A stretch of 64,000 nucleotides of DNA from Phycisphaerae bacterium (GTDB taxonomy: Bacteria; Planctomycetota; Phycisphaerae; SM23-33). The position numbers and the translations under genes are program-made. The notes beneath the pieces were generated by a model. That model did not search any database, was not told where the DNA came from, and was given only the letters and a program-made list of their open reading frames with translations. Shown one piece after another: positions 2,596 to 59,805 of this stretch. The stretch covers positions 197,146 to 261,145 of the forward strand of contig JBDKRA010000022.1 in the NCBI GenBank assembly GCA_039683615.1, read 5' to 3'. Each line of letters opens with the position of its first letter. The first letter of the stretch is position 1.

Positions 2596-2706
2596 AACAC
2601 GAATGTCACGAATGGGGCGAATAGAAGAAACAACAAAACTGATGTGCGCGCTTCTATGCCGTTCCTTATTTCTGCATTAGCTTCATTCGTGACATTCGTG
2701 CTCTCT
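2596..2706. repeat. Hairpin with CACGAATGTCACGAATG arms (family D, copy 1), sited between convergent genes
   Basis: The arms are acacgaatgtcacgaatgg and cattcgtgacattcgtg, with an approximately 70-nt AT-rich loop. A second copy lies at 59605-59729. Confidence 0.55.
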
Positions 2707-2722
2707 TCCAGAACGCGGAAGA

Positions 2723-3988
2723 TCACTTCGCCAGGAACGCCTTAAATGCACCGCCGAAGAGGTTGCGAATGTCGCGGGCGATCTCGGGCTCGGTCGGCCG
2801 CCAGCCGTCGTTGAAGAGTTTCGTGTAGCGCTCGACGAGCACTTTCTCAGCGATGCGCTTGGCGTGGGCCCATTTGTAGATCACCTGGTCGACCACGCGC
2901 GCGTCGCTGTGCTGGAGCGTGAAGGCCGTCCCCAGCAGCTCCAGGCGCATGCGGGTCATCTCTTCGATGATGCTGGCGTTGTTGCAGAACCACCAGCAGC
3001 CCTCGATGTGCAGATTGCGGAACTTGCGGCCGAGCACCGTCAACTCGTGCTGGTTCGCCCGGGCGAGCATCGTCACGATGAACTTGGCGGAGGGGAACTC
3101 GCGGCAGAGATTTTCCACCGCCCGCACGTCGGCCACGCCCAGGCCGTCGCCGCCGTCGCGCAGCGGCGGGTTCACGCCGCGGCGCACGCCGATCATCATC
3201 GCCAGCGGCACGCCCAACTCCATCGCCACCGGCACGACGACATTCTGCACCACCTGCGGTGCGGTCGTGCCTTCGGGATACACGAACGTCGGCGGCAGCG
3301 AGGCCGCCAGGTACGTCGGCTTGAGAATCTTCGCCCAATCGAGAAGGAACCTGCGGGCCTCTGCGAAGCTGACGCTGCCGCCGGCGGGCTGGGCGTCGTA
3401 GCCCTGGGTCTGCAACAGCCGGCAGGCTCCGGGCCAATCCACAATCAGAGTGTCGATGCGCAGGGCGGTCTTGAGGAACGCCGGCACCGGCCGTACGGGC
3501 TTGGCCTTCCAGCACTTGACCTCTTCGGCCTTGAACGGGTCGTTGGTCATCACGGCGTAGTCGATGTGCGTCTGCTCGAAGACGCGGGCGAGATAATCCT
3601 CGGCCGTTTGCGCCGCGTACCACTTGCGGATGCTGCTCAGGTCGCGTGGGCCGGCGTCGATGCCCAGCAGGTTGAGGGTGGTCACCACGCCGCCGGCCAC
3701 TTCGCTCATTGCCCCGCCCTCGATGAACACGTGCTTCCAGACCAGGTCGGCCTGGGCGGCCTTGGGCATGGCCCAGAACTTTTCCGGAGTCAGCGACCGC
3801 GGGGCTACCATGAACAGTTCCGCAACCAGGTAGTGGTACGTCAGCAGGTCGTCGATACCCCATAGCATCAGTCCCCCGTGCGAGGGCGGGAAGAGGTGCG
3901 TATGGATGTCGGTGATGGGGGTCGACGCGATACAGCGGCGGACGGCCTGCTGCAGCGAAGCGGTATCAATCAGCGCGGCCATTGTCAT
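2723..3988 (-). CDS. Amidohydrolase-superfamily protein resembling uronate isomerase (UxaC-like)
   Basis: The N-terminus ITDIHTHLFPP...YHYLVAELF parallels the UxaC IDYHCHL...DHYKWR pattern. The start is placed at MTMAALID (ATG 3988), because the 160 aa the ORF track puts upstream are low-complexity R/P/G typical of a GC artefact. The start overlaps the lpxA stop (TAATG). Confidence 0.55.
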   Translation of the reverse strand: MTMAALIDTASLQQAVRRCIASTPITDIHTHLFPPSHGGLMLWGIDDLLTYHYLVAELFMVAPRSLTPEKFWAMPKAAQADLVWKHVFIEGGAMSEVAGGVVTTLNLLGIDAGPRDLSSIRKWYAAQTAEDYLARVFEQTHIDYAVMTNDPFKAEEVKCWKAKPVRPVPAFLKTALRIDTLIVDWPGACRLLQTQGYDAQPAGGSVSFAEARRFLLDWAKILKPTYLAASLPPTFVYPEGTTAPQVVQNVVVPVAMELGVPLAMMIGVRRGVNPPLRDGGDGLGVADVRAVENLCREFPSAKFIVTMLARANQHELTVLGRKFRNLHIEGCWWFCNNASIIEEMTRMRLELLGTAFTLQHSDARVVDQVIYKWAHAKRIAEKVLVERYTKLFNDGWRPTEPEIARDIRNLFGGAFKAFLAK

Positions 3989-4883: not shown

Positions 4884-4976
4884 CTAGTAGCCGGTATGGT
4901 AGCCAGTAGCCAGTAGCCCGTAGCCAGTCAGATTCGCATTAATCCCCGTTACTGGCTACCGGCTACCGGCTACTGG
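4884..4976. repeat. Hairpin built from CCAGTAGCC / GGCTACTGG units (family B, copy 1), sited between divergent genes
   Basis: agtagccggtatggtagccagtagccagtagcccgtagccagt is answered by actggctaccggctaccggctactgg, with a 20-nt loop. The second copy is at 16068-16142. Confidence 0.55.
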
Positions 4977-4998: not shown

Positions 4999-5901
4999 TT
5001 GCATTCCATGACTCAGGAAAGAACAACACGCACGCTCCATGATCTGCTGGGCCCGTGCGGGCGGCGATTTGAGGGTGACCTGGCGAAGTGGCTGGTCGAG
5101 CCGGGCACGCCCGAGTCGCTGGCGGCGGCGATGCGATACTGCACCGAAGGCGGTAAGCGATTGCGCCCGTCGCTGGTGTACCTTTCAGCCACGGCCGTCG
5201 GCGGCGACACTGCGCCGCAGGCGGAACTCGTCGGGCGCTGCGCCGCAGCGGTGGAGTTGATCCACTGCTACAGCCTCGTGCATGACGATCTGCCGGCGAT
5301 GGACGACGACGCGCTGCGGCGGGGGCGCCCCACCGCTCACGTCAAGTTCGGCGAGGCGATGGCGATTCTCGTCGGCGACGCGCTGCTGACGCGGGCGTTT
5401 GGCCTGCTCGGCGGCGGGCCCCGCGCGGGGCAACTGGTGAGCGAACTGGCCGGCGCGGCCGGCGGGGCGGCGCTCATCGCCGGGCAAGTGGCCGACATGA
5501 ATCTCTGCGCCGTAGAAAAGGGAATCGAGGGCCTGCAGCGCATTCACCAGCGCAAGACCGCCGCCCTGATAGCGGCCGCCACAGTTCTGGGGGGTATCTG
5601 CGGCGGTGCAGCCGATACAATAGTGGAATCCCTGCGGGCCTACGGGCAGATGCTGGGCCTGGCGTTTCAGGTCGTCGACGACATCCTGGATGTCACTGGC
5701 AGCGCCGGCGAGCTGGGCAAGACGCCCGGCAAGGACAGCCGCCAGGCCAAGCGGACCGCCGTGACAGAACTGGGCATGCAGGGCGCGGCCGAACTGGCGG
5801 ATGCACTTGCCGCAAAGGCGGTCGCAGCCTTGGCCCCGCTGGGGCCGCGCGGCGCAGACCTGGCGGACTTGGCGGACCTGCTGACGCGGCGGACAAACTA
5901 A
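4999..5901 (+). CDS. ispA: Polyprenyl diphosphate synthase (FPP/GGPP synthase, IspA family)
   Basis: First aspartate-rich motif LVHDDLPAMDDDALRRG and second motif FQVVDDILD. Confidence 0.85.
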   Translation: MHSMTQERTTRTLHDLLGPCGRRFEGDLAKWLVEPGTPESLAAAMRYCTEGGKRLRPSLVYLSATAVGGDTAPQAELVGRCAAAVELIHCYSLVHDDLPAMDDDALRRGRPTAHVKFGEAMAILVGDALLTRAFGLLGGGPRAGQLVSELAGAAGGAALIAGQVADMNLCAVEKGIEGLQRIHQRKTAALIAAATVLGGICGGAADTIVESLRAYGQMLGLAFQVVDDILDVTGSAGELGKTPGKDSRQAKRTAVTELGMQGAAELADALAAKAVAALAPLGPRGADLADLADLLTRRTN

Positions 5902-5965: not shown

Positions 5966-7864
5966 TTGATGCCACAGCAACGGTTGCTCGACAGGATCGT
6001 CACGCCGCACCAGTTGCGCCGCCTCAGCGAGGAGCAGCTCGTGCAGGTCGCCGACGAGTTGCGGCAGCGGATCATCGAGGTCGTCTCGAGCAACGGCGGG
6101 CACCTGGCCAGCAACCTGGGCATCGCGGAGTTGACCGTCGCGCTGCACAACGTCTTCGATTTCTCGCACGACCGGCTGCTCTGGGACGTCGGCCACCAGT
6201 GCTACGCCCACAAGCTGCTGACGGGGCGCGGCGAACGGTTCTCCACGCTGCGCCAGGCCGGGGGCATCAGCGGCTTTCCCGCCCCGTCCGAGAGCCTGTA
6301 CGACCTGTTCGCCACCGGCCACGCCGGCACGGCGATATCGACGGCGGCGGGGATGGCCTGGGCCGACCAGATCGCCGGGCGCGACACGCGCGTGGTGGCG
6401 GTGGTGGGCGATGGGAGCATCGTCAACGGCCTGTCGCTGGAGGGGCTCAACAACGCGGCGCTGCTCAAACGGCAGTTCCTGATCGTGCTCAATGATAACT
6501 CGATGTCGATCGACCCCTCGCAGGGCGCCCTGGCGGGCATGTTGGACCGCGTCCGCACCTCGCACACGTACAGCGACATCAAGCAGTCGACCGAGACCAT
6601 GCTCCAGCGCCTGCCGCTGGGCGAGGAAATTTCTGAAGCCCTCCGCCAGATCAAGGCCGGCCTGCGGACCACGCTGCACGGGGGCAGCTTCTTCGAGTCG
6701 CTGGGCATCGCGTATTTCGGCCCCGTCGACGGGCACAACATCCACGCCCTGGTGCACATCCTGGGCCGCCTGGCGGCCGTCAACCAGCCCGTCGTCCTGC
6801 ACGTTCACACGCAAAAGGGCCGCGGCTGCCAATACGCCGTCGAAGACCCCTGCCGGTTCCACAGCCCGCCGGCGTACGTCATCGAGGAAGGCAAGGCCGT
6901 CTTCGCCAAGACCGAGAACCCCTCCTGGACGGCGGCGTTCTCGGAGATCCTGGTGGACCTGGCCGCGGCGGATGAACGCATCATGGCCATCACGGCTGCC
7001 ATGCCCGACGGGACGGGACTGTCGGAGTTCCGCGCGGCATATCCGGGCCGATTCGTCGACGTGGGCATCAGCGAGTCGCACGCGGTGGCGATGGCGGCCG
7101 GGCTGTCGCGCGCGGGGCTGCGGCCGGTCGTGGCGATCTATTCGACCTTCATGCAGCGCGCGGTGGACCAGGTCTTCCAGGAACTGGCGCTGCAAAAGCT
7201 GCCGGCGCTGCTGTGCATGGACCGCGCGGGCCTGGTCGGCTCGGACGGTGCCGTGCACCAGGGCTTCATGGACATCGCGATGTTCCGCGCCGTGCCGGGC
7301 ATGGTGCTGATGGCCCCCGGCGACGCCGAAGAACTGCGGGCCGCGATGACCTTTGCGCTGTCGCTGGAGGGTCCTGTGGCCATCCGCTACCCGCGCGACG
7401 AGATTCCCCCGCCGCTGCAAGGCCCATGCCCGCCGTTCGAGCTGGGCAAGAGCCGCTGCGTGCGCGAAGGCGCCGACGCGGCCATCTTCGCCTACGGCGC
7501 GATGGTCGAGCAGGCCCTCGACGCCGCGGGGGAATTGGCCGGCAACGGCATCGAGACGGCTGTCTACAGCGCCCGATTCGCCAAGCCGCTCGACGCGGCG
7601 ACCCTCGCAACCCTGATCGCCAGCCGCCGCCCGCTGCTGGTGGTGGAAGACCACGCCGTCGTCGGCGGGCTGGGCTCAGCCGTGCTGGAACTGGCCGCAC
7701 AAAAAGGGCTCGACGCCTCCAACGTCCGCCTGGCGGGCCTGCCCGATAAGTTCATCTCGCACGCCTCGCGCAGCGAGCAGCTAGGGCGAGTCGGCCTCGA
7801 CGGCACGCACCTGGCCGCGACCATGCGCGAAATGCTCAGGAAGAATGCAACCAACAGAAGTTAG
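5966..7864 (+). CDS. dxs: 1-deoxy-D-xylulose-5-phosphate synthase
   Basis: GGHLASNLGIAELTVALH, GHQCYAHKLLTGR, and the TPP-binding and transketolase-like C-terminal regions are present. The ispA-dxs order is the classical one. Confidence 0.95.
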   Translation: MMPQQRLLDRIVTPHQLRRLSEEQLVQVADELRQRIIEVVSSNGGHLASNLGIAELTVALHNVFDFSHDRLLWDVGHQCYAHKLLTGRGERFSTLRQAGGISGFPAPSESLYDLFATGHAGTAISTAAGMAWADQIAGRDTRVVAVVGDGSIVNGLSLEGLNNAALLKRQFLIVLNDNSMSIDPSQGALAGMLDRVRTSHTYSDIKQSTETMLQRLPLGEEISEALRQIKAGLRTTLHGGSFFESLGIAYFGPVDGHNIHALVHILGRLAAVNQPVVLHVHTQKGRGCQYAVEDPCRFHSPPAYVIEEGKAVFAKTENPSWTAAFSEILVDLAAADERIMAITAAMPDGTGLSEFRAAYPGRFVDVGISESHAVAMAAGLSRAGLRPVVAIYSTFMQRAVDQVFQELALQKLPALLCMDRAGLVGSDGAVHQGFMDIAMFRAVPGMVLMAPGDAEELRAAMTFALSLEGPVAIRYPRDEIPPPLQGPCPPFELGKSRCVREGADAAIFAYGAMVEQALDAAGELAGNGIETAVYSARFAKPLDAATLATLIASRRPLLVVEDHAVVGGLGSAVLELAAQKGLDASNVRLAGLPDKFISHASRSEQLGRVGLDGTHLAATMREMLRKNATNRS

Positions 7865-7950
7865 CGGTCGAGCCCCCAGGGGATCTGCGACTTGCTCGAC
7901 GCGGTTTCTCCTGCTCGACCGCCGCGTGGGGCAAGCCCCGCCGCCAACTT
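7864..7950. repeat. Conserved post-stop element GTCGAGCCCCCAGGGGATCTGCGACTTGCTCGAC, followed by GGGGCAAGCCCCGCCGC (family E, copy 1)
   Basis: It starts immediately after the dxs stop. A near-identical 34-nt core lies after the stop of the gene ending at 39913, and the GGGGCAAGCCCCGCCGC part recurs at about 43020. Confidence 0.5.
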
Positions 7951-7967
7951 TCGCTGCTGGCATCTTT

Positions 7968-9038
7968 CTATAGAATCAGCATGGCGTCGCCGTAGGAGAA
8001 GAAGCGGTATTTCTCGGCTACGGCTTGGGCGTAGGCGTCCAGGATCGTCTTGACGCCTTTGGTCGAACCGGGGCTGGCGAAGGCGGCTACCAGCATCAGC
8101 AGCGTGCTCCTGGGCAGGTGAAAGTTCGTAATCAGCGCATCGACGCAGCGGAAGTGCGCGGGGGGATAGATGAAGATATCGGTCCAGCCGCTATCCGCAG
8201 CGAGCGTTGAACCTTGTCTGGCGGCGAGCGTCTCCAGAACGCGCACCGACGTGGTGCCGACGGCCACGATGCGCCTGCCGGCAGCGCGGGCGGCGTTTAG
8301 TCTGGCGGCCGCGGGGACTGAGAGCTCGTACCATTCGCTGTGCATCAGGTGGTCCGCCAGGCGCTCGGCCTTGACCGGTGCGAACGTGCCGACTCCCACG
8401 TGCAGCGTTACGCTGACCTGCTCGACGCCCATGTCGGCCAGTTGCGCCAGCAGTTCCTGTGTGAAGTGCAGCCCGGCCGTCGGGGCGGCCACGGCGCCGT
8501 CGCAGGCAGCGTAGACGGTCTGGTATCGCCGGCGGTCCTGTTCGTCGCCGGCCTGGGGATCGCGGCGGATGTACGGTGGCAGGGGAATCGTGCCGGCGCG
8601 GGCAAGGATGGCGGCAGCCGGTTCCAGCGCCGAACCGTTCACGAGCCAGCAGCCTTGTCCGAGATTTCGCTCCAGGATCAGCGAGACGTCCTGGGCTCGC
8701 TCCATGACGAGCGTTTCGCCGGCTTTGCACCGCCCGGCGCCTTTGAGGAGGACTTGCCACTGGCGCGGCGGGGCCTGGTGAAGGAAGAGGCCTTCGATGC
8801 GTCCGCCCGAGGCGCGACGGCAGACGAAGCGGGCTGGCAGGACTCGCGTGTCGTTGACCACCAGCACGTCGCCGCGGCGCAGGAACTGTGGCAGATCGGC
8901 AAAGGTGCGGTGGCTGACGACACCGCCAGGGCGATCGAGAACCATCAGCCGCGACTGCCCCCTCTGCGGCGAGGGGAACTGCGCGATCAACCCGGCAGGC
9001 AGAGCGTAGTCAAAATCACTTGTGCAAGGCGTGTCCAC
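7968..9038 (-). CDS. queA: S-adenosylmethionine:tRNA ribosyltransferase-isomerase
   Basis: FDYALPAGLIAQFP, PLPPYIRR, and GTTSVRVLE motifs are present. Confidence 0.9.
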   Translation of the reverse strand: MDTPCTSDFDYALPAGLIAQFPSPQRGQSRLMVLDRPGGVVSHRTFADLPQFLRRGDVLVVNDTRVLPARFVCRRASGGRIEGLFLHQAPPRQWQVLLKGAGRCKAGETLVMERAQDVSLILERNLGQGCWLVNGSALEPAAAILARAGTIPLPPYIRRDPQAGDEQDRRRYQTVYAACDGAVAAPTAGLHFTQELLAQLADMGVEQVSVTLHVGVGTFAPVKAERLADHLMHSEWYELSVPAAARLNAARAAGRRIVAVGTTSVRVLETLAARQGSTLAADSGWTDIFIYPPAHFRCVDALITNFHLPRSTLLMLVAAFASPGSTKGVKTILDAYAQAVAEKYRFFSYGDAMLIL

Positions 9039-9457: not shown

Positions 9458-10334
9458 TCTTTTGCGACGTCGGGGCAACGCCCTTGCCGACCACGGCGAT
9501 TCCCAGCTTGTCCGCCAGCGCCAGCGTTGCGGGCTTGTCGACGATCAGCGTCTTGCCGGCCTCGACGACCAGGCAGGCGCACTTGGCGTCTTTGAGATTT
9601 CGGATGGTGCTGGGCCCGACGGTGGGCACGTCGAAGCGCATGTCCTGCTTGGGGCGGGCAACCTTGACCATGATCCACTTGCCCTTGCGGCAGACGCGCC
9701 CCGCGCGGCGGATCATCGCGTCGGTGCCCTCCATCGCCTCGACGGCGATGATGTCGCGCTCCTTGACGGCGATGCTCTGGCCGATGTCCAGGTCCGCGCT
9801 GGCGCGGGCGATGTACCAGCCGAAATCCACGTCGGCCGCCACGCCGCCGGGCAGCGGCTTGTGCGTCATCAGCCCTTCGTCGGCCAGATGCTCCTGACAG
9901 TATTTCACGCTCGACACCAGTTCGATCCCTTCGCTTCGCAGCTCGTCGGCCACTGAAAGCAGGACGGCGTTGTCGCGCTTGTCTTTCCGCAGCCGCAGAT
10001 ACCATATCTTAGCGGAGCGGATATCGGGAACATATCGTAAAAGCCTCAGCGGGGTGTAGATGGCCTGCTTCTTGACGCCGCCGACCATGACGGCCTCGTG
10101 CACGCCATGCTTCTTGAAGAAGCGGATCCACTGGCCGGCCCGCACGATGCCCACCCACTTGAAATCATCCGACAGCCCCTTGAGGCGAACCGAAGCGAGG
10201 CTGGAAAAGCCGATCGTGATCAGCGGGCGTCCGGTGGCGATGATCCCATTGGCCACCAGGAACGGCAGGCGTCCGCTGCCGGCGATCAGCCCCACGGGCT
10301 CGCGTTTGAGGTCGATATCCATCGCCGCCCTCAA
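9435..10334 (-). CDS. lpxI: UDP-2,3-diacylglucosamine hydrolase LpxI (DUF1009 family)
   Basis: GLIAGSGRLP N-terminal motif and a length near 290 aa. It is co-directional with, and 4-nt overlapping, the ABC ATPase gene. Confidence 0.65.
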   Translation of the reverse strand: MRAAMDIDLKREPVGLIAGSGRLPFLVANGIIATGRPLITIGFSSLASVRLKGLSDDFKWVGIVRAGQWIRFFKKHGVHEAVMVGGVKKQAIYTPLRLLRYVPDIRSAKIWYLRLRKDKRDNAVLLSVADELRSEGIELVSSVKYCQEHLADEGLMTHKPLPGGVAADVDFGWYIARASADLDIGQSIAVKERDIIAVEAMEGTDAMIRRAGRVCRKGKWIMVKVARPKQDMRFDVPTVGPSTIRNLKDAKCACLVVEAGKTLIVDKPATLALADKLGIAVVGKGVAPTSQKTTTCRPD

Positions 10335-11026
10335 CCGCCCAGCCGTCCGTCAGCGAGGCGAAAGACGGTATCGGCCTGCTGGGCGAGGTTGTTGTCGTGC
10401 GTGACCATGAGGATCGTCTGGCCGCGCTGCTGGTTGAAGCTTCGCAGCACCGAGATGATCTGCTTGCCGGTGACGCTGTCGAGGTTTCCGGTGGGTTCGT
10501 CGGCCAGCAGCACCTTGGGATTGTTGATCAGCGCCCGGGCGATAGCGACGCGCTGTCGCTCGCCACCTGAGAGCTCGCGCGGGCGGTGGCCCAGGCGGTG
10601 CGAGAGATTCAGCGACTCGAGGATTTCGACCGCCTGTTTGCGGGCGGGCCCGCGGCGGCGCGACCAGGCGAGGACCGAGCTGTCCACCTTCACCGGCAGC
10701 AGCACGTTTTCGATAATGTCCAGCTCCGGCACGAGGTGGTAGAACTGGAAGACGAAGCCCACGTCGCGGCATCGCACCCGATTGCGCTTAGCGGCGGGCA
10801 GCTTCGACGCGTCGATGCCGTCGAGCCAGACCGATCCGGCGTCGGGCTTGTCGAGCAGGCCCACCAGGTGCAGCAGGGTGCTCTTGCCGCTGCCCGAGGC
10901 CCCGACCACCACGGCGAACTCGCCCTTGCGCACCTGCACGTCCACCCCGCGCAGCACCCGCAGCGTCGAGCTGCCCATGTGGTAGCTCTTGGTCAGCCCT
11001 TGGGCCTTGATCGCCAGGTCATTCAT
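10331..11026 (-). CDS. lolD: ABC transporter ATP-binding protein, LolD/MacB-type
   Basis: Walker A GASGSGKST, ABC signature LSGGERQRVAIARAL, Walker B LLADEPTGNLD, and an H-loop are present. Confidence 0.85.
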   Translation of the reverse strand: MNDLAIKAQGLTKSYHMGSSTLRVLRGVDVQVRKGEFAVVVGASGSGKSTLLHLVGLLDKPDAGSVWLDGIDASKLPAAKRNRVRCRDVGFVFQFYHLVPELDIIENVLLPVKVDSSVLAWSRRRGPARKQAVEILESLNLSHRLGHRPRELSGGERQRVAIARALINNPKVLLADEPTGNLDSVTGKQIISVLRSFNQQRGQTILMVTHDNNLAQQADTVFRLADGRLGG

Positions 11027-13046
11027 AGCGAAGGGCCTCCACCGGCTGCATGCGGGCCGCCCGGACCGCCGGAATCATCGCCCCGATCAGCCCCGCCACC
11101 AGGGCGCCGGCGATGATCCACACCGCCGCGGACCAGTCCACCTCGTTGGGGATCTTCTCGAACATGAACGTCTCGGGGTCCCAGACGCGGAAACCCACTG
11201 TCGCATCCGTGAAGTCCTGGATGGCATTGATATTCCTGACGAAGATCCATCCCAGCACCGATCCCAGCACCGACCCGATCAGCCCGATGATCGCCCCGTA
11301 GCCGAAGAAGATGCCCGCCACGCCCCAGGACGAACCGCCCACCGCCTTGACGATCCCGATGTCGGCGGTCTTCTGCACCACGATCACGTACAGGATCACC
11401 ACGATCAGCAGCACCGACACGCCCCACATGATGCTGTTCATCACGATCGCCAGCGTTCGCTGCTGCTGGATGGGCCCGATCACGTGCCGCTGCAACTGCC
11501 GCCACGTCACGATCGAGACCTCGCCCGAGGCCCGGTGGCTGGGCTCGGCCGCGAAGGTCTTCCAGAGTTCCTGAATCTTGCCCGAGACATCCTGGAGAAT
11601 CTCTTCTTCCGAATACCGGTGCGGGAGCCACTGCCCCTTGGCGCCTTCCAGGAGCCGCGCCGAGGGCACCCACTTGTCGATGTCCACCTTGAAATGGATC
11701 TGCGAGCAGCGGGCCGGCACGACCACCCGCTTGGAGTCGTCTGCGTCGTACTCGGCGGCCATGTTGTTCATGGCCTGCAGCGTCTCAAAGGGAATGTAGA
11801 CGAACTTCGAGTCGATGCTGGAGACGTCGCTGTGATTGTCGTCGATGACGGTGAAGTCGGCCATCTGCACCTGCGGCATGGACGTGCCGGTCGCCTTGCC
11901 CAGCGGCAGCATCAGCAGCGAGATCTTGTTGCCGGGCACGACGTGGCGGATCGTCTCGCCTTTGGGCGAACGGAATGACAGCCCGCCGATGCCCAGGCCC
12001 AGAACGACGCGGTGCGCCGCATCGCCCATCAGGTACTCCTGCGTCAGGGCCAGGCAGCGGTCCAGGGCGTCGACGGTCTCGACGGTGGGCAGGTCCTGGC
12101 GAGCCCGCTTGAGCTCGTCTTTGAGACCGGGCAGCGCCGCCTCGACCGACTTGTTCGTGCGCAGAAAATCCTCGGCCGCCAGCGTCTCCAGCAGCACCAA
12201 GGCCTGACTCAGCGCGGCGGTGGTCGATGCGGATGGGCCTTTGTCCTGGGCCTGTGCCAGCACGTTGCGGAGGTCCGTCCACTGTTGGCGGTACTTCTGC
12301 GTGTTGAGGATGCATCGCTGAGCGCGGCGCCGGAAGACAAACGTCGTCTGGATCCGCTCGGCGATCGCCTGCGAGGCCAGGATGTCGCGCATCTGCGAGT
12401 CGGTCAGGTCGTCGGCCGTCTTCTGCGGCAGCGCGGCGAGCCAGGCCATATCGTCGTCGCCGACCGGCGGCGGCGAGTCCAGCAGCTTGTCCAGGCGCTG
12501 GCGCTGGATAGGCAGGAGCTTGTCCCGGTCGGTCTGCAGGGCGTAGACCTTGAGCGTCTCGCGCTGGCGGATCAAGAGCACCTGGTCATTGTCCTGCTTG
12601 ATCCTTTCCAGCAGCAGCTTTGCCGGCGGATCGAACGTGGGTCGCGGCACGCCGGCCTCGAAGTAGAGCCCCTGCTCGAAGTCGGACACGTCCACGCGCT
12701 GGGGCAGGCGGATGCCGGCGATCTGGATCGTCTGGCGAAAATCGGTGCCCGGCACCGGCAGGATGCCATACGCGAGAATGAAGGGCGAGCCGGCCTTGAC
12801 CTCGGGCACCTTCTTCGTCACCTCGGCGATGAACTCGTCGTAGTACGCCATGCCGGTGACGCCGCCGGACTCGACGACGACGTCGCCGAAAAGCCCCTTG
12901 GCCGCCCGCTCGATCTTCCACAGAAACCCGCTCATGACGCTGACGCTGACGAGCATCAAAAACACGCACGCCGACACGCCCAGCATCGCCAGGATCGCCA
13001 GGGCCTTGCTGCGCAGGTACGTCAGGAGTAGGTGGAGTTTGTACAT
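11019..13046 (-). CDS. FtsX-family ABC transporter permease (LolC/E or MacB-like) with a large periplasmic domain
   Basis: An N-terminal TM helix is followed by a periplasmic domain of about 470 aa and a C-terminal FtsX-type 3-TM bundle. It overlaps lolD by 8 nt. Confidence 0.8.
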   Translation of the reverse strand: MYKLHLLLTYLRSKALAILAMLGVSACVFLMLVSVSVMSGFLWKIERAAKGLFGDVVVESGGVTGMAYYDEFIAEVTKKVPEVKAGSPFILAYGILPVPGTDFRQTIQIAGIRLPQRVDVSDFEQGLYFEAGVPRPTFDPPAKLLLERIKQDNDQVLLIRQRETLKVYALQTDRDKLLPIQRQRLDKLLDSPPPVGDDDMAWLAALPQKTADDLTDSQMRDILASQAIAERIQTTFVFRRRAQRCILNTQKYRQQWTDLRNVLAQAQDKGPSASTTAALSQALVLLETLAAEDFLRTNKSVEAALPGLKDELKRARQDLPTVETVDALDRCLALTQEYLMGDAAHRVVLGLGIGGLSFRSPKGETIRHVVPGNKISLLMLPLGKATGTSMPQVQMADFTVIDDNHSDVSSIDSKFVYIPFETLQAMNNMAAEYDADDSKRVVVPARCSQIHFKVDIDKWVPSARLLEGAKGQWLPHRYSEEEILQDVSGKIQELWKTFAAEPSHRASGEVSIVTWRQLQRHVIGPIQQQRTLAIVMNSIMWGVSVLLIVVILYVIVVQKTADIGIVKAVGGSSWGVAGIFFGYGAIIGLIGSVLGSVLGWIFVRNINAIQDFTDATVGFRVWDPETFMFEKIPNEVDWSAAVWIIAGALVAGLIGAMIPAVRAARMQPVEALRYE

Positions 13047-13056
13047 TTCTTGAAAA

Positions 13057-13110
13057 CAGTAATCAGTAATCAGTAATCAGTAATCGGTAAACCGTAATCG
13101 GTATCGGTAA
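13057..13110. repeat. Tandem heptad array (CAGTAAT)n; left terminal inverted repeat of the four-helix-bundle cassette
   Basis: cagtaatcagtaatcagtaatcagtaatcggtaa... abuts the stop codon of the 13111-13494 gene. Its reverse complement forms the array at 13527-13606. Confidence 0.7.
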
Positions 13111-13494
13111 TCAGTCGCCTGTCTTCTGCTTCTGAAGGTAGGTGATATATCCGTTGAGGAGCTTCATCGTCTCAGCAGCAACCTTGCGGATCTCGTCCAA
13201 GCTTGGCTTATCCGCATAATTCCGATCTTCGCTGGTATTGAGATCATCCACTATTTCACACACAGAGCCTCGAGAAGTTCGGCAGAACTTCGTGTTGTCT
13301 TGCCAGCTGTACCGTCCATGACCTTCGGCAATATTGTTTGTCACAGAAACAGCAGCTCTTCGCAGTTGCTGTGCCAAGCCGTATTTCTCACAGTCAGGCA
13401 ACCGTCCAGCCAACGCATAAGCTTTGCCCCGCAGTTCCCTCGCCTTCCTGTATACCGCCAAATCTTCAAACCCAAACGGGCTTCTCTCTTCCAT
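13111..13494 (-). CDS. Four-helix-bundle protein (23S rRNA intervening-sequence protein family)
   Basis: 127 aa with the family motifs LRRAAVSVTNNIAEGHGRYS and KFCRTSRGSVCE. Confidence 0.8.
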   Translation of the reverse strand: MEERSPFGFEDLAVYRKARELRGKAYALAGRLPDCEKYGLAQQLRRAAVSVTNNIAEGHGRYSWQDNTKFCRTSRGSVCEIVDDLNTSEDRNYADKPSLDEIRKVAAETMKLLNGYITYLQKQKTGD

Positions 13495-13526
13495 ATCCTC
13501 ACCCCATAGAAGCGACTATCGATCAT

Positions 13527-13606
13527 CGGTTACCGATCCGATTGCTGATTACGTTACTGATTACTGGTTACTGATTACCGATTACCGATTACTGATTACC
13601 GATTAT
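13527..13606. repeat. Tandem heptad array (CTGATTA/CCGATTA)n; right terminal inverted repeat of the four-helix-bundle cassette
   Basis: ctgattacgttactgattactggttactgattaccgattaccgattactgattaccgattattg is the reverse complement of the left array. It overlaps the lysS stop codon. Confidence 0.7.
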
Positions 13607-15078
13607 TGCCTCAATAGCGGAAACAACACGACGTCCCTGATACTCTGCCGATTTGTCAGCAGCATCACCACGCGATCTATGCCGATGCCCAGTCCGCCTG
13701 CCGGGGGCATGCCGTGACGCAGGGCGGTTACGAAATCTTCGTCCATCTGCCGCATGGCCGCGCCGTCGCCTTCGCCCTTGACCTGCTGGAGGAAGTTGGC
13801 CTCCTGAATCGCCGGGTCATTGAGCTCGGTGTAGGCGTTGCCGATCTCCATGCCCGCGATGAACACCTCGAATCGCAGGGCGATGCCCGGGTCGTCCGGC
13901 TTGCGGCGCGTCAGCGGACAGATCTCGGCCGGGTAGTCCTTCACGAACAGCGGCGTGTTCATCTTGGCCATCGCCGGCTCGACGGTGGCCTCGAAGACCT
14001 CGTTGATCACCACCGCGTCGTCCTTGTTGGACTCCTGCAGTTGCAGCTCGCGAGCTTTGGCGCGCACGGCGGCCGCGTCACGCATCTTCACGCCGGCGTA
14101 TTTTTCCAGCAGATCGCCGTAGGTCGCCCGAGGCCACGGGCGGGTCAGGTCCAGTTCCATCTCGCCGTAGGGGATCTTCAGCCCGCCGGCGACCTTCTCG
14201 GCCGCGGTGGAGATCAACTCTTCGGTAATCTCCATCATGACCTCGTAGTCGGCGTAGGCCTCGTAGAGTTCCATCATCGTGAACTCGGGATTGTGCCGCG
14301 TGTCGATGCCTTCGTTGCGGAAATTGCGGCCGATCTCGAAGACCCGCTGCATCCCGCCCACCAGCAGCCGCTTGAGGTATAGCTCCGGGCTGATGCGCAG
14401 GAACAGGTCTGCGTCGAGGGTATTGTGGTGCGTCGTAAACGGCCGCGCCGCCCCGCCGCCGTAGATCGGCTGCAGGATCGGCGTCTCGACCTCGGCGTAT
14501 CCGCGGGCAGCCAGCTTGGCTCGGATGTGATTGATGATCGCCACGCGCTTCTGGAAGACGGCCATCGAGTCGGGGTTGGCCGCGAGGTCGAGGTACCGCT
14601 GGCGGTAGCGCGTCTCCGTGTCAGTAAGGCCGTGGAACTTCTCGGGCATCGGCTCGAGGCTCTTGCACAGCAGCGTCAGGCGCTTGGCCCAGACGGTGAT
14701 CTCGCCGGTCTTGGTGCGCTGCAGCGGGCCCGCGGCCGCCACGATGTCACCCAGGTCCAGCAGCTTGGCCAGGGCCCAGGACTTCTCGTCCAGATCATTC
14801 TTGCGCAGGGCGATTTGCATCTGCCCGCTCTGGTCGCGCAGGTGGGCGAAGATCATCTTGCCCATGTCACGAAAGAGGATGACCCGCCCCGCCACGTCGG
14901 CGGCCTGGCCTTCCAGGGCGTGACCTTGGGCGTCTTCCTTGTAGCCTTCCAGCACGGTGCTGATGGGCGCAGCGGTATCATACCGCCAGCCGTAAGGGTC
15001 GATACCCAGCTCGCGCACCTTATCGAGGTTCGCTTGCCTGTCTGCCTGCACTTTTTCCAGCATGAATGGACTTTCCAC
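13603..15078 (-). CDS. lysS: Lysine--tRNA ligase (class II)
   Basis: OB-fold N-domain; class II motifs FRNEGIDTRHNPEFTMMELY and GGLGIGIDRVVMLLT. Confidence 0.95.
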   Translation of the reverse strand: MESPFMLEKVQADRQANLDKVRELGIDPYGWRYDTAAPISTVLEGYKEDAQGHALEGQAADVAGRVILFRDMGKMIFAHLRDQSGQMQIALRKNDLDEKSWALAKLLDLGDIVAAAGPLQRTKTGEITVWAKRLTLLCKSLEPMPEKFHGLTDTETRYRQRYLDLAANPDSMAVFQKRVAIINHIRAKLAARGYAEVETPILQPIYGGGAARPFTTHHNTLDADLFLRISPELYLKRLLVGGMQRVFEIGRNFRNEGIDTRHNPEFTMMELYEAYADYEVMMEITEELISTAAEKVAGGLKIPYGEMELDLTRPWPRATYGDLLEKYAGVKMRDAAAVRAKARELQLQESNKDDAVVINEVFEATVEPAMAKMNTPLFVKDYPAEICPLTRRKPDDPGIALRFEVFIAGMEIGNAYTELNDPAIQEANFLQQVKGEGDGAAMRQMDEDFVTALRHGMPPAGGLGIGIDRVVMLLTNRQSIRDVVLFPLLRQ

Positions 15079-15160
15079 AAGACCCGCGGATATCCGTCAA
15101 CACGAATGATACATGATCCCCCATCGCCCGCGCGGCGTCAAGCGCCGGGGCGTATCTGGT

Positions 15161-15245
15161 GGATTGGTTAACTCGTTAACTGGTTGGCTGGTCGGCTGGT
15201 TGACCCATTAACCAATTAGCCAGTTAACCAATCAACCAACCAGCT
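15161..15245. repeat. GTTAAC/GGTTGAC-unit hairpin (family A, copy 2)
   Basis: ggttaactcgttaactggttggctggtcggctggttgaccc is mirrored by ccaattagccagttaaccaatcaaccaaccagc. Confidence 0.55.
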
Positions 15246-16026: not shown

Positions 16027-16067
16027 GTTTCTATTCCTTCATTGTGAGCGCGCATGGTACAGCGTTT

Positions 16068-16142
16068 GGTAGCCAGTAGCCAGTAGCCAGTGAAAGCTGG
16101 TAGTCTTTCTTGTTGTTACTGGATACCGGCTACTGGCTACTT
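16068..16142. repeat. CCAGTAGCC-unit hairpin (family B, copy 2), sited between divergent genes
   Basis: ggtagccagtagccagtagccagtg is answered by actggataccggctactggctac. Confidence 0.55.
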
Positions 16143-16157
16143 TCTCAGAGGTCCCGC

Positions 16158-20215: not shown

Positions 20216-20340
20216 GTTGGTTGGCTGGATAACTGGTTAATTGGTTCACGGGTTGATTGGTCGACTGGTTGAAAGGGCTGGCATTGAGCTGATACCCAGT
20301 CAACCGGTTAGCGAGTTAACGAGTCAACCAATTAACGACT
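20216..20340. repeat. GTTAAC/GGTTGAC-unit hairpin (family A, copy 3)
   Basis: tggttaattggttcacgggttgattggtcgactggttga is mirrored by cccagtcaaccggttagcgagttaacgagtcaaccaattaacga. It sits between the divergent cydA and esterase genes. Confidence 0.6.
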
Positions 20341-20390
20341 TCTCGCCTCCTCACGGGTTATAGTATGCGGTAAGACTGTAAGGAGCCATC

Positions 20391-36499: not shown

Positions 36500-36596
36500 A
36501 GCAGCTTTCAGCTATCAGCTGTCAGTGTAAGCAAGAACCTCGCACTCATCGTACCTGCTCTTGCTGATAGCTGACAGCCGATAGCGTCTCTGGTGA

Positions 36597-43152: not shown

Positions 43153-44943
43153 ATGTGCCCCATGGCGATGTTCTCGCAACAATTCATTGACCAGGTTGCC
43201 CAGGCCACGGACATCGTGGACCTGATCGGGCAGTATGTGGCCCTGGCCAAGAAGGGCAAGGAATTTGTCGGGCTCTGTCCGTTCCACCAGGACAAGCATC
43301 CGTCGATGAACGTCTCGCCGGCCAAGCAGATCTTCAAGTGCTTCGCCTGCGGGGCCGGCGGACAGGCGTTCAACTTCATGATGATGCTGGAGAACATGAC
43401 CTTCCCCGATGCCGTGCGCATGTTGGCCGAGCGGGCCAACATCCCCCTGCCCGTGCAGACGCCCGGCCAGCCTGCCCCCCAGGACGGCCTGGGCAAGAGC
43501 GACCTGGTGCGCGTCATGGGTGTGGCGCAGGAGTTCTTCCGCAAGTCGCTGCACACGGCCGCGGGCGAGTCGGCATTGGCGTACGCCCGCAAGCGCGGGC
43601 TAAGCGACGAATCGCTCGAGCGGTTCGGGATCGGCTTTGCCCCAGATGCTTGGGACGCGCTAATCAAGTTCACGCGCAACCAGCGCGTCAGCGAGGCGCA
43701 GCTTGTGGCCGCCGGGCTCGTCGCCCGGCGCGAGAGCGGCGGCTGCTACGACCGCTTCCGCAATCGCCTGACGTTTCCGATCTATGACGCGACCAATCAG
43801 ATCATCGCCTTCGGCGGACGTGCCTTGGGGGCGGACGAACAGGCCAAATACCTCAACAGCCCCGAGACGATCCTGTTCGACAAGTCGTCCAACCTGTACG
43901 CCCTGAACTGGGCGCGCCCGGTGATCGTTTCGAGCAAGCAGGCGGTGGTAGTCGAGGGCTATCTCGACGCGATCATGCCCCACCAATGCGGAGCGGCCAA
44001 TGTGGTGGCCACGCTGGGCACGTCGCTGACGGAGCGACACGTGCGGGTGCTCTCGCGATACGCCAGCGAGGTCGTGCTGGTGTTCGACGCCGACGTGGCG
44101 GGGGCGGCCGCGGCTGAGCGGGCACTGGAAATCTTCCTCTCCCAGCAGGTTCATGTGCGCGTGGCGACGATCCCGGCCGGCAAGGACCCGTGCGACTACT
44201 GCCTGGCCGAGGGCGGCGAGGCGTTCAAGACGCTGCTGGCCAACGCGCCCGACGCGCTGGAATACGTCTGGCAGAAGCGTCAAGCCGAGCTCGAGACGGC
44301 CGGAGGCAACCTGGCCGACCGGCGGCGGCTGGTGGAGAACTTTCTGGGCCTGGTGGCGCAGTCGCAGGCGTACGGGGCCATCGACACGGTGCGGCAGAGC
44401 CAGCTCGCCCAGCACATCGGGCACCTGCTGAACATTCCACCGGCCGAGCTGCAGCAGGAGATGCGCCGCCTGTCGCGGCAGGTGCGCCCCACCGCCCGCT
44501 CGGGCGCCGCGCCGCCCACGACGGGCTCGGCGATCGAGGGCACGCTTCGCCCGCAGCGGCACGTGCTGGAGGTGCTGTTGAACAAGCCCGATCTGTTCGA
44601 CACGGCGGCCGAGCGCATCAGCCCGCGCGACTTCACCGACGCGTCATTCGCGCGGATCGCGCAGTGCCTGTGGCAGGCAGCGGCCGAGGGCGTGACCGCG
44701 CCCGAGCAGATCACCTGCCGGGCAGAGATCGCCGACCTGGGCAACCTGTTAGCCGACCTGATCGCCACCGGCGAGCACCGCGGGAACTTTGAAGACACAC
44801 TGCGCGGCGCGCTGGACTTCATCAGCTATCAGCGCGGCCGCCAGGAATCGCAGCAAGGCACGGCCGCGTCGGAAGAAGAACGACTTCGTGCGGCGACCGA
44901 GAGACCCAAGGCGGATGTGAGACGAAGGCCACGCATCACGTAA
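43153..44943 (+). CDS. dnaG: DNA primase
   Basis: The zinc finger is CPFHQDKHPSMNVSPAKQIFKCFACGAGG, and the TOPRIM region is EGYLDAIM. Confidence 0.95.
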   Translation: MCPMAMFSQQFIDQVAQATDIVDLIGQYVALAKKGKEFVGLCPFHQDKHPSMNVSPAKQIFKCFACGAGGQAFNFMMMLENMTFPDAVRMLAERANIPLPVQTPGQPAPQDGLGKSDLVRVMGVAQEFFRKSLHTAAGESALAYARKRGLSDESLERFGIGFAPDAWDALIKFTRNQRVSEAQLVAAGLVARRESGGCYDRFRNRLTFPIYDATNQIIAFGGRALGADEQAKYLNSPETILFDKSSNLYALNWARPVIVSSKQAVVVEGYLDAIMPHQCGAANVVATLGTSLTERHVRVLSRYASEVVLVFDADVAGAAAAERALEIFLSQQVHVRVATIPAGKDPCDYCLAEGGEAFKTLLANAPDALEYVWQKRQAELETAGGNLADRRRLVENFLGLVAQSQAYGAIDTVRQSQLAQHIGHLLNIPPAELQQEMRRLSRQVRPTARSGAAPPTTGSAIEGTLRPQRHVLEVLLNKPDLFDTAAERISPRDFTDASFARIAQCLWQAAAEGVTAPEQITCRAEIADLGNLLADLIATGEHRGNFEDTLRGALDFISYQRGRQESQQGTAASEEERLRAATERPKADVRRRPRIT

Positions 44944-44944
44944 A

Positions 44945-45260
44945 AAGTTGTGAGTTGTGAGTGGTGAGCGGTGAGTAAGAAACAAGAAGCATCCTGCGGT
45001 GGAATCTCACAACTCACCACTGAGTTGTGGGTGGTGAGTTGTAAGTCCTCGCCCCGTACGGGGCGATGGGGATATAGCCGGGGGCACTGCCCGCCCGCTT
45101 CGGGGCGGGAACCTTATTACGCTTCATCCGGGCTGCGTGGCGGGAAGAACCCGCCGCTTGCCCCCGGCTATATCCCCAGCGGTCCTTCGGACCGCGTCTT
45201 GACCACTCACCACTCACAACTGCTTCTGGAGCTTCTCACTCACCACTCACCACACACAAC
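44945..45260. repeat. Composite element: inverted arrays of GTTGTGAGT/GGTGAG units bracketing a core of about 150 nt holding four GC-rich hairpins
   Basis: Left arm: gttgtgagttgtgagtggtgagcggtgagt. Right arm: ccactcaccactcacaactg...ctcactcaccactcaccacacacaactcacaac. Core: palindrome gccccgtacggggc, a 16-bp stem ggatatagccgggggc/gcccccggctatatcc enclosing cccgcc-cttc-ggcggg-type hairpins, and cggtccttcggaccg. Confidence 0.6.
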
Positions 45261-59572: not shown

Positions 59573-59604
59573 AGGAAACGCTTATCTTACTATATTGTAA
59601 AAAA

Positions 59605-59729
59605 ACTTACCACGAATGACACGAATGAAACGAATGCCACAAATAAAGAGAGAGGCGAAGAGACGGGGAAATACAAAGCACTCCTTCTTTTCGTGCCATT
59701 CGTCTTTATTCGTGACATTCGTGGTAAGT
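59605..59729. repeat. CACGAATG-unit hairpin (family D, copy 2) downstream of rho and beside the tRNA
   Basis: cttaccacgaatgacacgaatgaaacgaatgccac is answered by gtgccattcgtctttattcgtgacattcgtggtaag, with a purine-rich loop of about 55 nt. Confidence 0.55.
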
Positions 59730-59805
59730 TGTTTTTGCAAAGGAAGACGCCCAGGGATTGGTATCCCTGGGCGTGGGGCGTGAGCGTATTTGCGTCTTGC
59801 AGCGT

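Follow-up and report, generated by a model that had tools for sequence, protein, structure and literature searches.

A four-helix-bundle gene of the 23S rRNA intervening-sequence type bracketed by inverted heptad arrays between lysS and a lolE-like gene: an example of a widespread architecture that appears to be undescribed

Introduction

Does a small gene enclosed by inverted repeats between two housekeeping genes belong to a mobile unit, or has it come to lie among repeats that have some other role? We asked this of a 64,000-nucleotide stretch of a Phycisphaerae bacterium (assembly GCA_039683615.1, contig JBDKRA010000022.1, positions 197,146 to 261,145), hereafter called the window. Between lysS and a lolE-like gene, the window carries a gene for a four-helix-bundle (4HB) protein of the PF05635 family, flanked on both sides by tandem arrays of a seven-base unit in inverted orientation. 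An initial annotation made from the sequence alone had proposed that this is a cassette-like mobile unit resembling an intervening sequence (IVS). Comparison with other PF05635 loci and with relatives of the host supports this proposal through the recurrence of the arrangement, the matching of array units to protein lineages, and the polymorphism of the junction. The window cassette is one instance of a widespread and apparently undescribed architecture.

PF05635 proteins occur in thousands of copies in Cyanobacteria, Bacteroidota, Planctomycetota, and other groups, where they are often annotated as 'S23 ribosomal protein' or 'four helix bundle protein'. We know of no role for the family outside diversity-generating retroelements (DGRs). 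The 23S rRNA IVSs of Coxiella and Leptospira are regarded as selfish and horizontally acquired (PMC4990558). In Coxiella, the IVS is 428-444 nt long, carries the S23p open reading frame (ORF) in the loop of a 28-bp stem formed by terminal inverted repeats, is excised by RNase III, and has a GC content below that of the genome (PMC4990558).

Results

Layout of the window cassette

The 4HB gene, its two neighbours, and the lolD-like gene are all encoded on the minus strand, so the array on the right in window coordinates is the 5' arm in gene orientation. The features of the locus are as follows.

13603-15078, minus strand: lysS, lysyl-tRNA synthetase, the upstream neighbour (Pfam tRNA-synt_2, E 1.7e-90, plus an OB anticodon domain)
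13528-13608, minus strand: 5' arm in gene orientation, about 10 units of TAATCRG/TAACCAG (Tandem Repeats Finder, TRF; inverted-repeat arms; sequence reading)
13496-13505, minus strand: Shine-Dalgarno-like GGGGTGAGGA, separated by 1 nt (T, 13495) from the ATG at 13494-13492 (sequence reading)
13111-13494, minus strand: 4HB gene, 127 aa (PF05635; 23S rRNA IVS protein, S23p, or Avd-like; Pfam and the relative 2GSC)
13054-13115, minus strand: 3' arm in gene orientation, CTGATTAC/CCGATTAC units (TRF 13057-13115; inverted-repeat arms from 13054)
11019-13046, minus strand: lolE-like FtsX-family permease, the downstream neighbour (Pfam FtsX, E 4.6e-13)
10331-11026, minus strand: lolD-like ABC ATPase, overlapping the end of lolE (Pfam ABC_tran, E 6.8e-33; synteny)

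TRF describes the array at 13057-13115 as having period 7 and 8.6 copies of the consensus CAGTAAT (score 76), and that at 13540-13605 as having period 7 and 9.7 copies of GATTACT (score 83), which is the reverse complement of CAGTAAT in another phase. The inverted arms extend over 53 nt with 83% complementarity and have 445 nt between them. When up to three mismatches were allowed, the degenerate three-unit pattern GTAATCRGTAATCRGTAATC matched 11 times in the window, every time within the two arms, against an expectation of 0 from 100 shuffles. Array detection, arm complementarity, and the shuffle test thus confirmed that the 4HB gene lies between inverted CAGTAAT-type arrays. Two further details of the earlier description needed correction: the arrays measure 59 and 66 nt rather than 55-80 nt, and CAGTAAT alternates with CGGTAAT.

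The cassette occupies the entire gap between the lysS stop codon and the lolE start codon. Its first unit on the 5' side supplies the lysS TAA (13603-13605), as the initial annotation had recognized, and the 3' array opens at the TGA of the 4HB gene (13111-13113, inside the array; CTGATTAC ...), where an abutting array had also been noted, and stops 10 nt short of the lolE-like ATG. The cassette thus reads, in order, as a heptad array on the 5' side, a spacer of 35-70 nt that holds a strong Shine-Dalgarno sequence, the PF05635 ORF, and an inverted 3' array from the stop codon. The 5' arm begins TAATCGG TAATCAG, and its units degrade inward (TAACG, CAATCGG, ATCGG, TAACCGA). In this lineage each unit includes a stop codon, which is TAA for the 5' arm (13528-13608) and TGA for the 3' arm (13054-13115), so that with a period of 7 each array blocks all three reading frames. 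The property fails in other lineages, such as those with AGTACCC units.

Recurrence of the bracketed gene

A profile built from four 4HB proteins (alignment A1) retrieved 80 metagenomic loci with 78 evaluable 4HB genes. For each gene, 220 nt of upstream sequence was aligned to the reverse complement of an equal length of downstream sequence, the score was set against that of shuffles, and a gene was counted as bracketed at z >=5, an arm of at least 18 nt, and tandem periodicity. Inverted tandem arrays bracketed 48 of the 78 genes (period 7 in 31, period 8 in 10, and period 9 in 7). Control ORFs were bracketed in 6 of 176 cases within the 4HB loci, several of them adjoining the 4HB gene, and in none of 428 cases in the lysS loci (described below) and the window (Fisher p 2e-24 and 4e-46, respectively). 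TRF arrays were present in 69% of the intergenic regions adjacent to 4HB genes vs 17% of others. Median distances are 10 nt from the stop codon to the beginning of the 3' array and about 55 nt from the end of the 5' array to the aligned start. Heptad-array terminal inverted repeats are a widespread feature of PF05635 rather than a peculiarity of the window locus.

The bracketed architecture recurs across phyla. Finished records include a bracketed 4HB gene with GGAGTCA units on plasmid pNPUN02 of Nostoc punctiforme and one with CTCCTGC units on a Gemmatirosa plasmid. A 4HB gene is flanked by TAGGTGT heptads in a metagenome-assembled genome (MAG) of Syntrophomonadaceae (L046), and a 4HB copy of Nostoc 7120 that adjoins insertion sequence (IS) elements has no inverted pair. 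The Syntrophomonadaceae locus also holds AT-rich heptad array pairs (AATTATT/AATTAAG) at 159-278 and 5290-5414, apart from the cassette; gene-less arrays thus co-occur with a cassette beyond Planctomycetota. An unannotated 4HB copy was seen in L075.

On a plasmid of Picosynechococcus sp. PCC 7003 (NZ_CP016476.1; L134, 1453-1882), a 4HB gene bracketed by GGAGATA units lies between cas10/cmr2 and cmr3 in a type III-B CRISPR operon. A matching Pleurocapsa case of a 23S_rRNA_IVP gene in a cas operon has been noted (PMC3936711); this is one of two CRISPR-context studies that report such genes in or near cas operons, with the flanking arrays unmentioned. Cassettes of this kind may account for the reported 'CRISPR association' of PF05635.

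Array units and protein lineage

Array units differ at nearly all loci yet follow the lineage of the 4HB protein. Arm 6-mers were shared by all seven 4HB pairs at 75% identity or more and by 59% of pairs at 65-75% identity, against a baseline of 13%. One such pair is L102/L107, whose 4HB proteins are 90% identical with dS >2 (saturated) and whose flanks are unrelated: DNA homology between the two loci starts in the AGTACCC array and stops in the GGGTACT array. Similar patterns were seen for L111/L124/L131 and L093/L097/L121.

We also examined the six nearest homologue clusters of the window protein that could be fetched (60-64% identity). All six are bracketed by GTAAnnn/nnnTTAC heptads, at four or more sites other than lysS-lolE, including the following.

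L136 and L137: between an unassigned neighbour (?) and DUF4340, unit GTAATCR
L138 and L139: between an amino-acid permease and a peptidyl-prolyl isomerase, unit GTAATCG
L142: between ybaB and recR, unit GTAACCA
L144: between ybaB and recR, unit GTAATTG
L145 and L146: between hom and pgm, unit GTAAACA
L147: between hom and pgm, units GTAACCG/GTAAGCA

A four-unit GTAAnnn pattern was present at 11 of these 12 loci vs one of the 135 others (p = 1e-14, with loci that are partly non-independent and all six clusters positive). As to what other GTAATCR-type pairs enclose, among the 147 fetched loci they were confined to the loci of the nearest 4HB homologues and to one gene-less hairpin (L019). Copies of the GTAAnnn/4HB cassette at different sites lie in different genomes, and the MAG that carries the L145 cassette is also the source of L003, where the lysS-lolE junction is empty.

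The two arms change together at ybaB-recR, an orthologous site, with GTAACCA/TGGTTAC in L142 vs GTAATTG/CAATTAC in L144. The 4HB proteins of these two loci are only 58% identical, and those of L138 and L144, which occupy different sites, are 77% identical. At hom-pgm, the cassettes of L145 and L147 are GTAA-type, and that of L115, with CAGGGAM units and a 4HB protein only 36-38% identical, is unrelated to them. This reuse of sites fits hopping between resident hairpins or the exchange of cassettes through array homology, and is not proof of either.

Array, gene, and array act as one relocating cassette, because the unit follows the lineage at unrelated sites and because the L102/L107 homology stops inside the arrays. 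The sequence comparisons show that array unit and gene lineage are inherited and relocated jointly. The GTAA core is kept among homologues of 60-64% identity, and synonymous sites are already saturated between the window gene and that of L005 (57% identity); the conserved core hints that the cognate protein recognizes the arrays. Arrays elsewhere in a locus shared the cassette unit in 33% of cases vs a baseline of 23% at a loose threshold, and the sharing was clear only in L061, L107/L108, L111, and L128.

Locus L111 contains a tandem direct duplication (2683-3113; 218 bp, 92% identity) of the 3' half of the 4HB gene and its 3' array, which is a recombination footprint at the cassette end. Two more gene-less hairpins, with the same CAGTGRY unit as the cassette, lie within 800 nt upstream.

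The lysS-lolE junction in relatives

A scan with LysS yielded 51 loci, nearly all from Phycisphaerae or Planctomycetota MAGs, with a best match of 78% identity; orthologues 50-78% identical were found in more than 40 of these MAGs. The order lysS-lolE-lolD is kept in about 40 relatives, and the lysS-lolE junction could be read in 41 loci.

This site is polymorphic among relatives. Several junctions are truly empty, with gaps of 9-60 nt; the gap measures 9-10 nt in L006 and in L007, and 28-57 nt in the group of L018, L022, L026, L027, and L045. An inverted array hairpin without a gene occupies at least nine others (L004, L014, L019, L021, L023, L024, L030, L031, and L040), and that of L019 has the window unit (TAATCAG TAACCGG ... 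TTACCGA TTACGGA). In L005 and L047, which are near-identical, the junction is taken by a different 4HB gene within arrays of GGAACCC/GGAACAC ... GTTCCTT, and further junctions contain unrelated inserts. Thus empty, hairpin-only, and other-cassette states all occur at the position occupied by the window cassette, and the uniform occupancy that would have spoken against the initial annotation was not observed.

L001 (7464-7825), L008 (7494-7797), and L037 (7665-7946) have in common a different hairpin insert, GTGCCACCCCCAAGCG ... GCTTGGGGG, and in L036 an ORF of about 230 aa resembling a membrane protein occupies the junction (7470-8172). In L015, a 4HB gene flanked by CTCGTTAA octads lies 3' of lolD.

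The encoded protein and its composition

The window protein matches PF05635 with E 1.1e-28 and 100 bits (cut-off 33.8), its residues 10-115 covering positions 1-106 of the 106-position model. The motif RxxxSxxxNxxE, given as conserved in PF05635 (Lin 2006, as cited in PMC3936711), is present as QQLRRAAVSVTNNIAEG, and alignment A1 shows no variation at R46, S50, N54, or E57. The closest solved relative is XCC0516 (2GSC, E 1.1e-13), a pentameric four-helix bundle to which the window protein is related by sequence alone. One database protein is 100% identical ('four helix bundle protein [Planctomycetaceae bacterium]', P0001), and the next best matches reach at most 64% identity.

The GC content of the cassette is 47-52% vs 60-69% in its neighbourhood, and GC at third codon positions is 0.55 in the 4HB gene vs 0.65-0.92 in the remaining genes. 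The same holds widely: the 4HB gene was below its flanks in GC in 70 of 71 loci, with a mean gap of 7 points, and tracked the GC of the host (r = 0.89). Ratios of dN/dS were 0.02-0.14 in six of the seven 4HB pairs with an unsaturated estimate, which points to strong purifying selection; the ratio was 1.09 in L065/L069, a very close pair. A Shine-Dalgarno-like GGGGAG/GGAGG precedes the start codon in the six nearest homologues also. Neighbours co-directional with the 4HB gene, found in 84% of cases on the upstream side and 79% on the downstream side, are no more than suggestive. From the dN/dS ratios, the low GC, the strong Shine-Dalgarno sequence, and the mostly co-directional neighbours, the protein appears to be functional and expressed, yet to have the composition of a selfish guest.

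Folding of the arms

When the cassette was folded as RNA, the two arms paired and enclosed the gene (minimum free energy, MFE, -206.1 kcal/mol vs -159.9 +/- 6.8 for shuffles, z = -6.8). The stems have a marked chirality. Of 47 cassettes, 39 have a 5' arm rich in G and poor in C, on either strand, and the stem pairs number 486 G-C vs 165 C-G. The gene-less hairpins in the window mostly share the bias toward a G-rich 5' arm. A search of Rfam gave no family for the cassette; the only hits were a tRNA in the window and a sub-threshold snoRNA match.

Other array hairpins in the window

The window also contains at least nine gene-less inverted tandem-array hairpins built from other units, so that arrays per se are not peculiar to the lysS-lolE spot. 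Those with short loops span entire intergenic gaps between genes that are co-directional, convergent, or divergent.

1654-1744, 2591-2707, 4885-4976, 15157-15245, 16065-16145, 20216-20344, 36502-36590, and 59599-59735: gene-less array hairpins with short loops

Recurring units in the window hairpins are TGGTTRAC (three times), GTAGCCA (twice), and CACGAATG (twice); CAGCTRT and AGTGGTG were also found. A larger structure at 44940-45275, between convergent genes, consists of two nested array stems (AGTGGTG/GAGTTGT) with a structured, GC-rich core inside them (45050-45190, about 140 nt). It folds with an MFE of -207.6 kcal/mol (z = -15.4), matched no Rfam family, and has a core motif that was absent from all fetched loci.

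Discussion

A proposed selfish cassette in a protein-coding operon

On balance, we think it somewhat probable that the window carries an IVS-type selfish 4HB cassette that resides in a protein-coding operon and not in 23S rRNA, because the element, RNase III excision left aside, has all the features of the Coxiella and Leptospira IVSs except the rRNA location. Such a cassette would lack a promoter of its own and would be transcribed along with lysS and lolED. In the operon transcript, the arrays would pair as a stem of about 55 bp and loop the insert out. By analogy with the 23S rRNA IVS that carries the same family, RNase III would probably cut this stem, splitting lysS from the lolED messages and freeing the 4HB message. 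Spread would proceed in a transposase-less manner, the simplest route being recombination or gene conversion, guided by array homology, into hairpins of similar unit that are already resident. Such a route would account for the reuse of junctions and for homology that ends inside the arrays. The ring-forming 4HB protein may also recognize its own arrays, as suggested by a unit that is both conserved and lineage-specific.

Several of our results weigh against this interpretation. Thirty of the 78 4HB homologues have no bracket. Gene-less array hairpins are common in 4HB-bearing genomes, where 15-17% of other intergenic regions carry arrays, and they are found at lysS-lolE too, so that arrays are not exclusive to cassettes and may predate them. 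The gene-less hairpins of the window and the lysS loci contained no decayed 4HB fragments, which also counts against a model in which these hairpins are the remnants of dead cassettes. The stems showed no significant excess of wobble pairs among their mismatches (62 G.U vs 54 A.C), and their complementarity could thus be maintained at the DNA level or through a copying process. Our scan found no promoter or terminator inside the cassette on the gene strand, but its promoter model is sigma-70-based and of limited value for Planctomycetota, so that co-transcription with lysS and lolED is a conjecture. The route by which the cassette would move is one that we purely infer.

Alternative explanations

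The gene-less hairpins also favour a different account, in which the arrays are resident regulatory hairpins (insulators, terminators, or elements of mRNA stability or translation) and the 4HB gene is a passenger that lands or survives in their loops. Their number in the window and in other 4HB-bearing genomes would be expected on this account, as would their presence at related lysS-lolE junctions, in L019 with the same GTAA unit, and the occupation of one junction by different cassette lineages. The array stem at 44940-45275 encloses a non-coding structured core, and the TAACTGA repeats of Beggiatoaceae (PMC4679880) are similar to arrays that directly precede a start codon. We nevertheless consider this account unlikely. 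Passive landing gives no reason to expect a unit that follows the 4HB lineage over unrelated sites, and 4HB genes are bracketed with an odds ratio of about 45 relative to other ORFs in the same loci; if landing needs array homology, the passenger account merges with that of a selfish cassette. A second possibility is that the 4HB oligomer acts in trans, binding tandem heptads in RNA or DNA across the genome, with the flanking arrays as its own operators and a role that is regulatory and not selfish. Avd, the DGR member of the family, binds nucleic acid and the DGR reverse transcriptase. Strong purifying selection, the GTAA core kept among distant homologues, the same-unit gene-less arrays near cassettes (L111, L107/L108, and L128), and the typical array size of 3-10 units all agree with a repeat-binding protein, as does the basic toroidal pentamer formed by the family (PMC4990558). 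Binding is, however, conjectural; the low GC in 70 of 71 loci and the patchy presence in close relatives look selfish and mobile, and orthologous cassettes may switch unit (L088 vs L098). We give a purely regulatory role a low probability, and repeat binding as such is compatible with a selfish cassette.

The initial annotation had also likened the unit to a miniature transposable element, and of this comparison the mobile cassette is supported and the classical transposon is not. A transposon with terminal inverted repeats, or a miniature inverted-repeat element, mobilized by a transposase encoded elsewhere and with the 4HB gene as cargo, would explain the inverted ends, one unit at several sites, and the presence/absence polymorphism. 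Target-site duplications were looked for at the cassette ends and none was found, either at the window cassette, whose outer flanks (ending in ...TTGAGGCAA and resuming with TTTTCAAGAA) have no direct repeat of at least 4 nt in common, or at L102/L107. No transposase or recombinase was seen in or beside any cassette examined, although a partner elsewhere in the genome is possible; the sole ORF of the window cassette is the 4HB gene, and in every context examined the neighbours are housekeeping genes. The arms are unequal and variable in length, the units differ by lineage, and among the gene-less hairpins the loops are tiny and the ends are not conserved. We therefore hold this explanation to be very improbable. 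Least credible of all, to the point of being nearly negligible, is that the arrays are products of local slippage that came to lie beside the gene by chance. Short-period arrays are prone to slippage and frequent in this genome, but chance predicts 0 matches to the pattern, the fold has z = -6.8, and brackets at 62% of homologues vs about 1% of controls contradict it, as do the comparative data at large. Readings of the locus as an integron attC array or a DGR were dropped, since arrays lie on both sides of the gene and neither an integrase nor a reverse transcriptase is a neighbour.

Comparison with known systems

The window cassette shares with the S23p-bearing 23S rRNA IVS a length of about 430-550 nt, an inverted-repeat stem, a PF05635 ORF in the loop, and a composition richer in AT than the host. 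It differs in lying between lysS and a lolE-like gene instead of in helix 25 or 45 of 23S rRNA, and in having a stem of about 55 bp made of tandem 7-nt units. In its period-7 intergenic arrays, often a few nt 5' of a start codon, it resembles the intergenic heptamers described as TAACTGA in Beggiatoaceae, Cyanobacteria, and Bacteroidetes (PMC4679880), the cyanobacterial short tandemly repeated repetitive (STRR) sequences, the heptanucleotide elements of Geobacter (PMC2700814), and those of the SPADE survey (bioRxiv 10.1101/309039). The unit is not TAACTGA; the window 3' arm reads CTGATTA/CCGATTA, and CTGATTA is one base from the CTGATAA phase. Those heptamers are described as direct repeats, with no link drawn to a flanked gene or to PF05635, whereas the arrays described here are inverted, bracket a gene family, and have lineage-specific units. 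The function of intergenic heptamers is acknowledged as unknown in those reports (PMC4679880, PMC2700814, bioRxiv 10.1101/309039).

A single gene between inverted copies of a short repeat, with gene-less hairpin doublets scattered elsewhere, recalls the REPIN/RAYT system (PMC3116915). RAYT is, however, an HUH (Y1) tyrosine transposase and its REP sequences are uniform per genome, whereas the window gene encodes PF05635 only, a 4HB protein with no known catalytic activity, and here the arms are tandem arrays with many unit families in one genome. Foldback and Galileo transposons likewise have long terminal inverted repeats built from short tandem repeats, but they are eukaryotic, far larger, transposase-dependent, and generate target-site duplications (PMC3573991). 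The Avd protein of DGRs is a homologous four-helix bundle of the same Pfam family that works on nucleic acid (PMC10053308); unlike in DGRs, neither a reverse transcriptase nor a template/variable repeat adjoins the window gene, which has lysS and lolE/lolD as its neighbours. Within the literature searched, we found no described link between PF05635, S23p, or Avd and heptad arrays. The claim that heptad-array terminal inverted repeats are undescribed for the family thus stands within that literature, with the amendment that the trait is family-wide and not specific to this locus.

Implications for the PF05635 family

A more far-reaching model, which we put forward tentatively and consider rather doubtful as a whole, would make PF05635 proteins the missing partners of the intergenic heptamers that are ubiquitous in prokaryotes. 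Each lineage would recognize its own 7-9-nt unit, with the ring oligomer reading successive units in a TRAP-like manner, and transposase-less selfish cassettes, as a class of their own, would propagate among array hairpins, seeding or maintaining gene-less arrays; the rRNA IVS would be a special case. For annotation, the arrays call for caution because they can look like CRISPR-like repeats or terminators. Our findings widen the rRNA intervening sequence to a type of cassette that resides in ordinary operons, such as a type III-B CRISPR operon and that of lysS/lolE, and they link the enigmatic PF05635 family with the unexplained intergenic 7-base repeats in a way that is specific, statistically strong, and matched by lineage.

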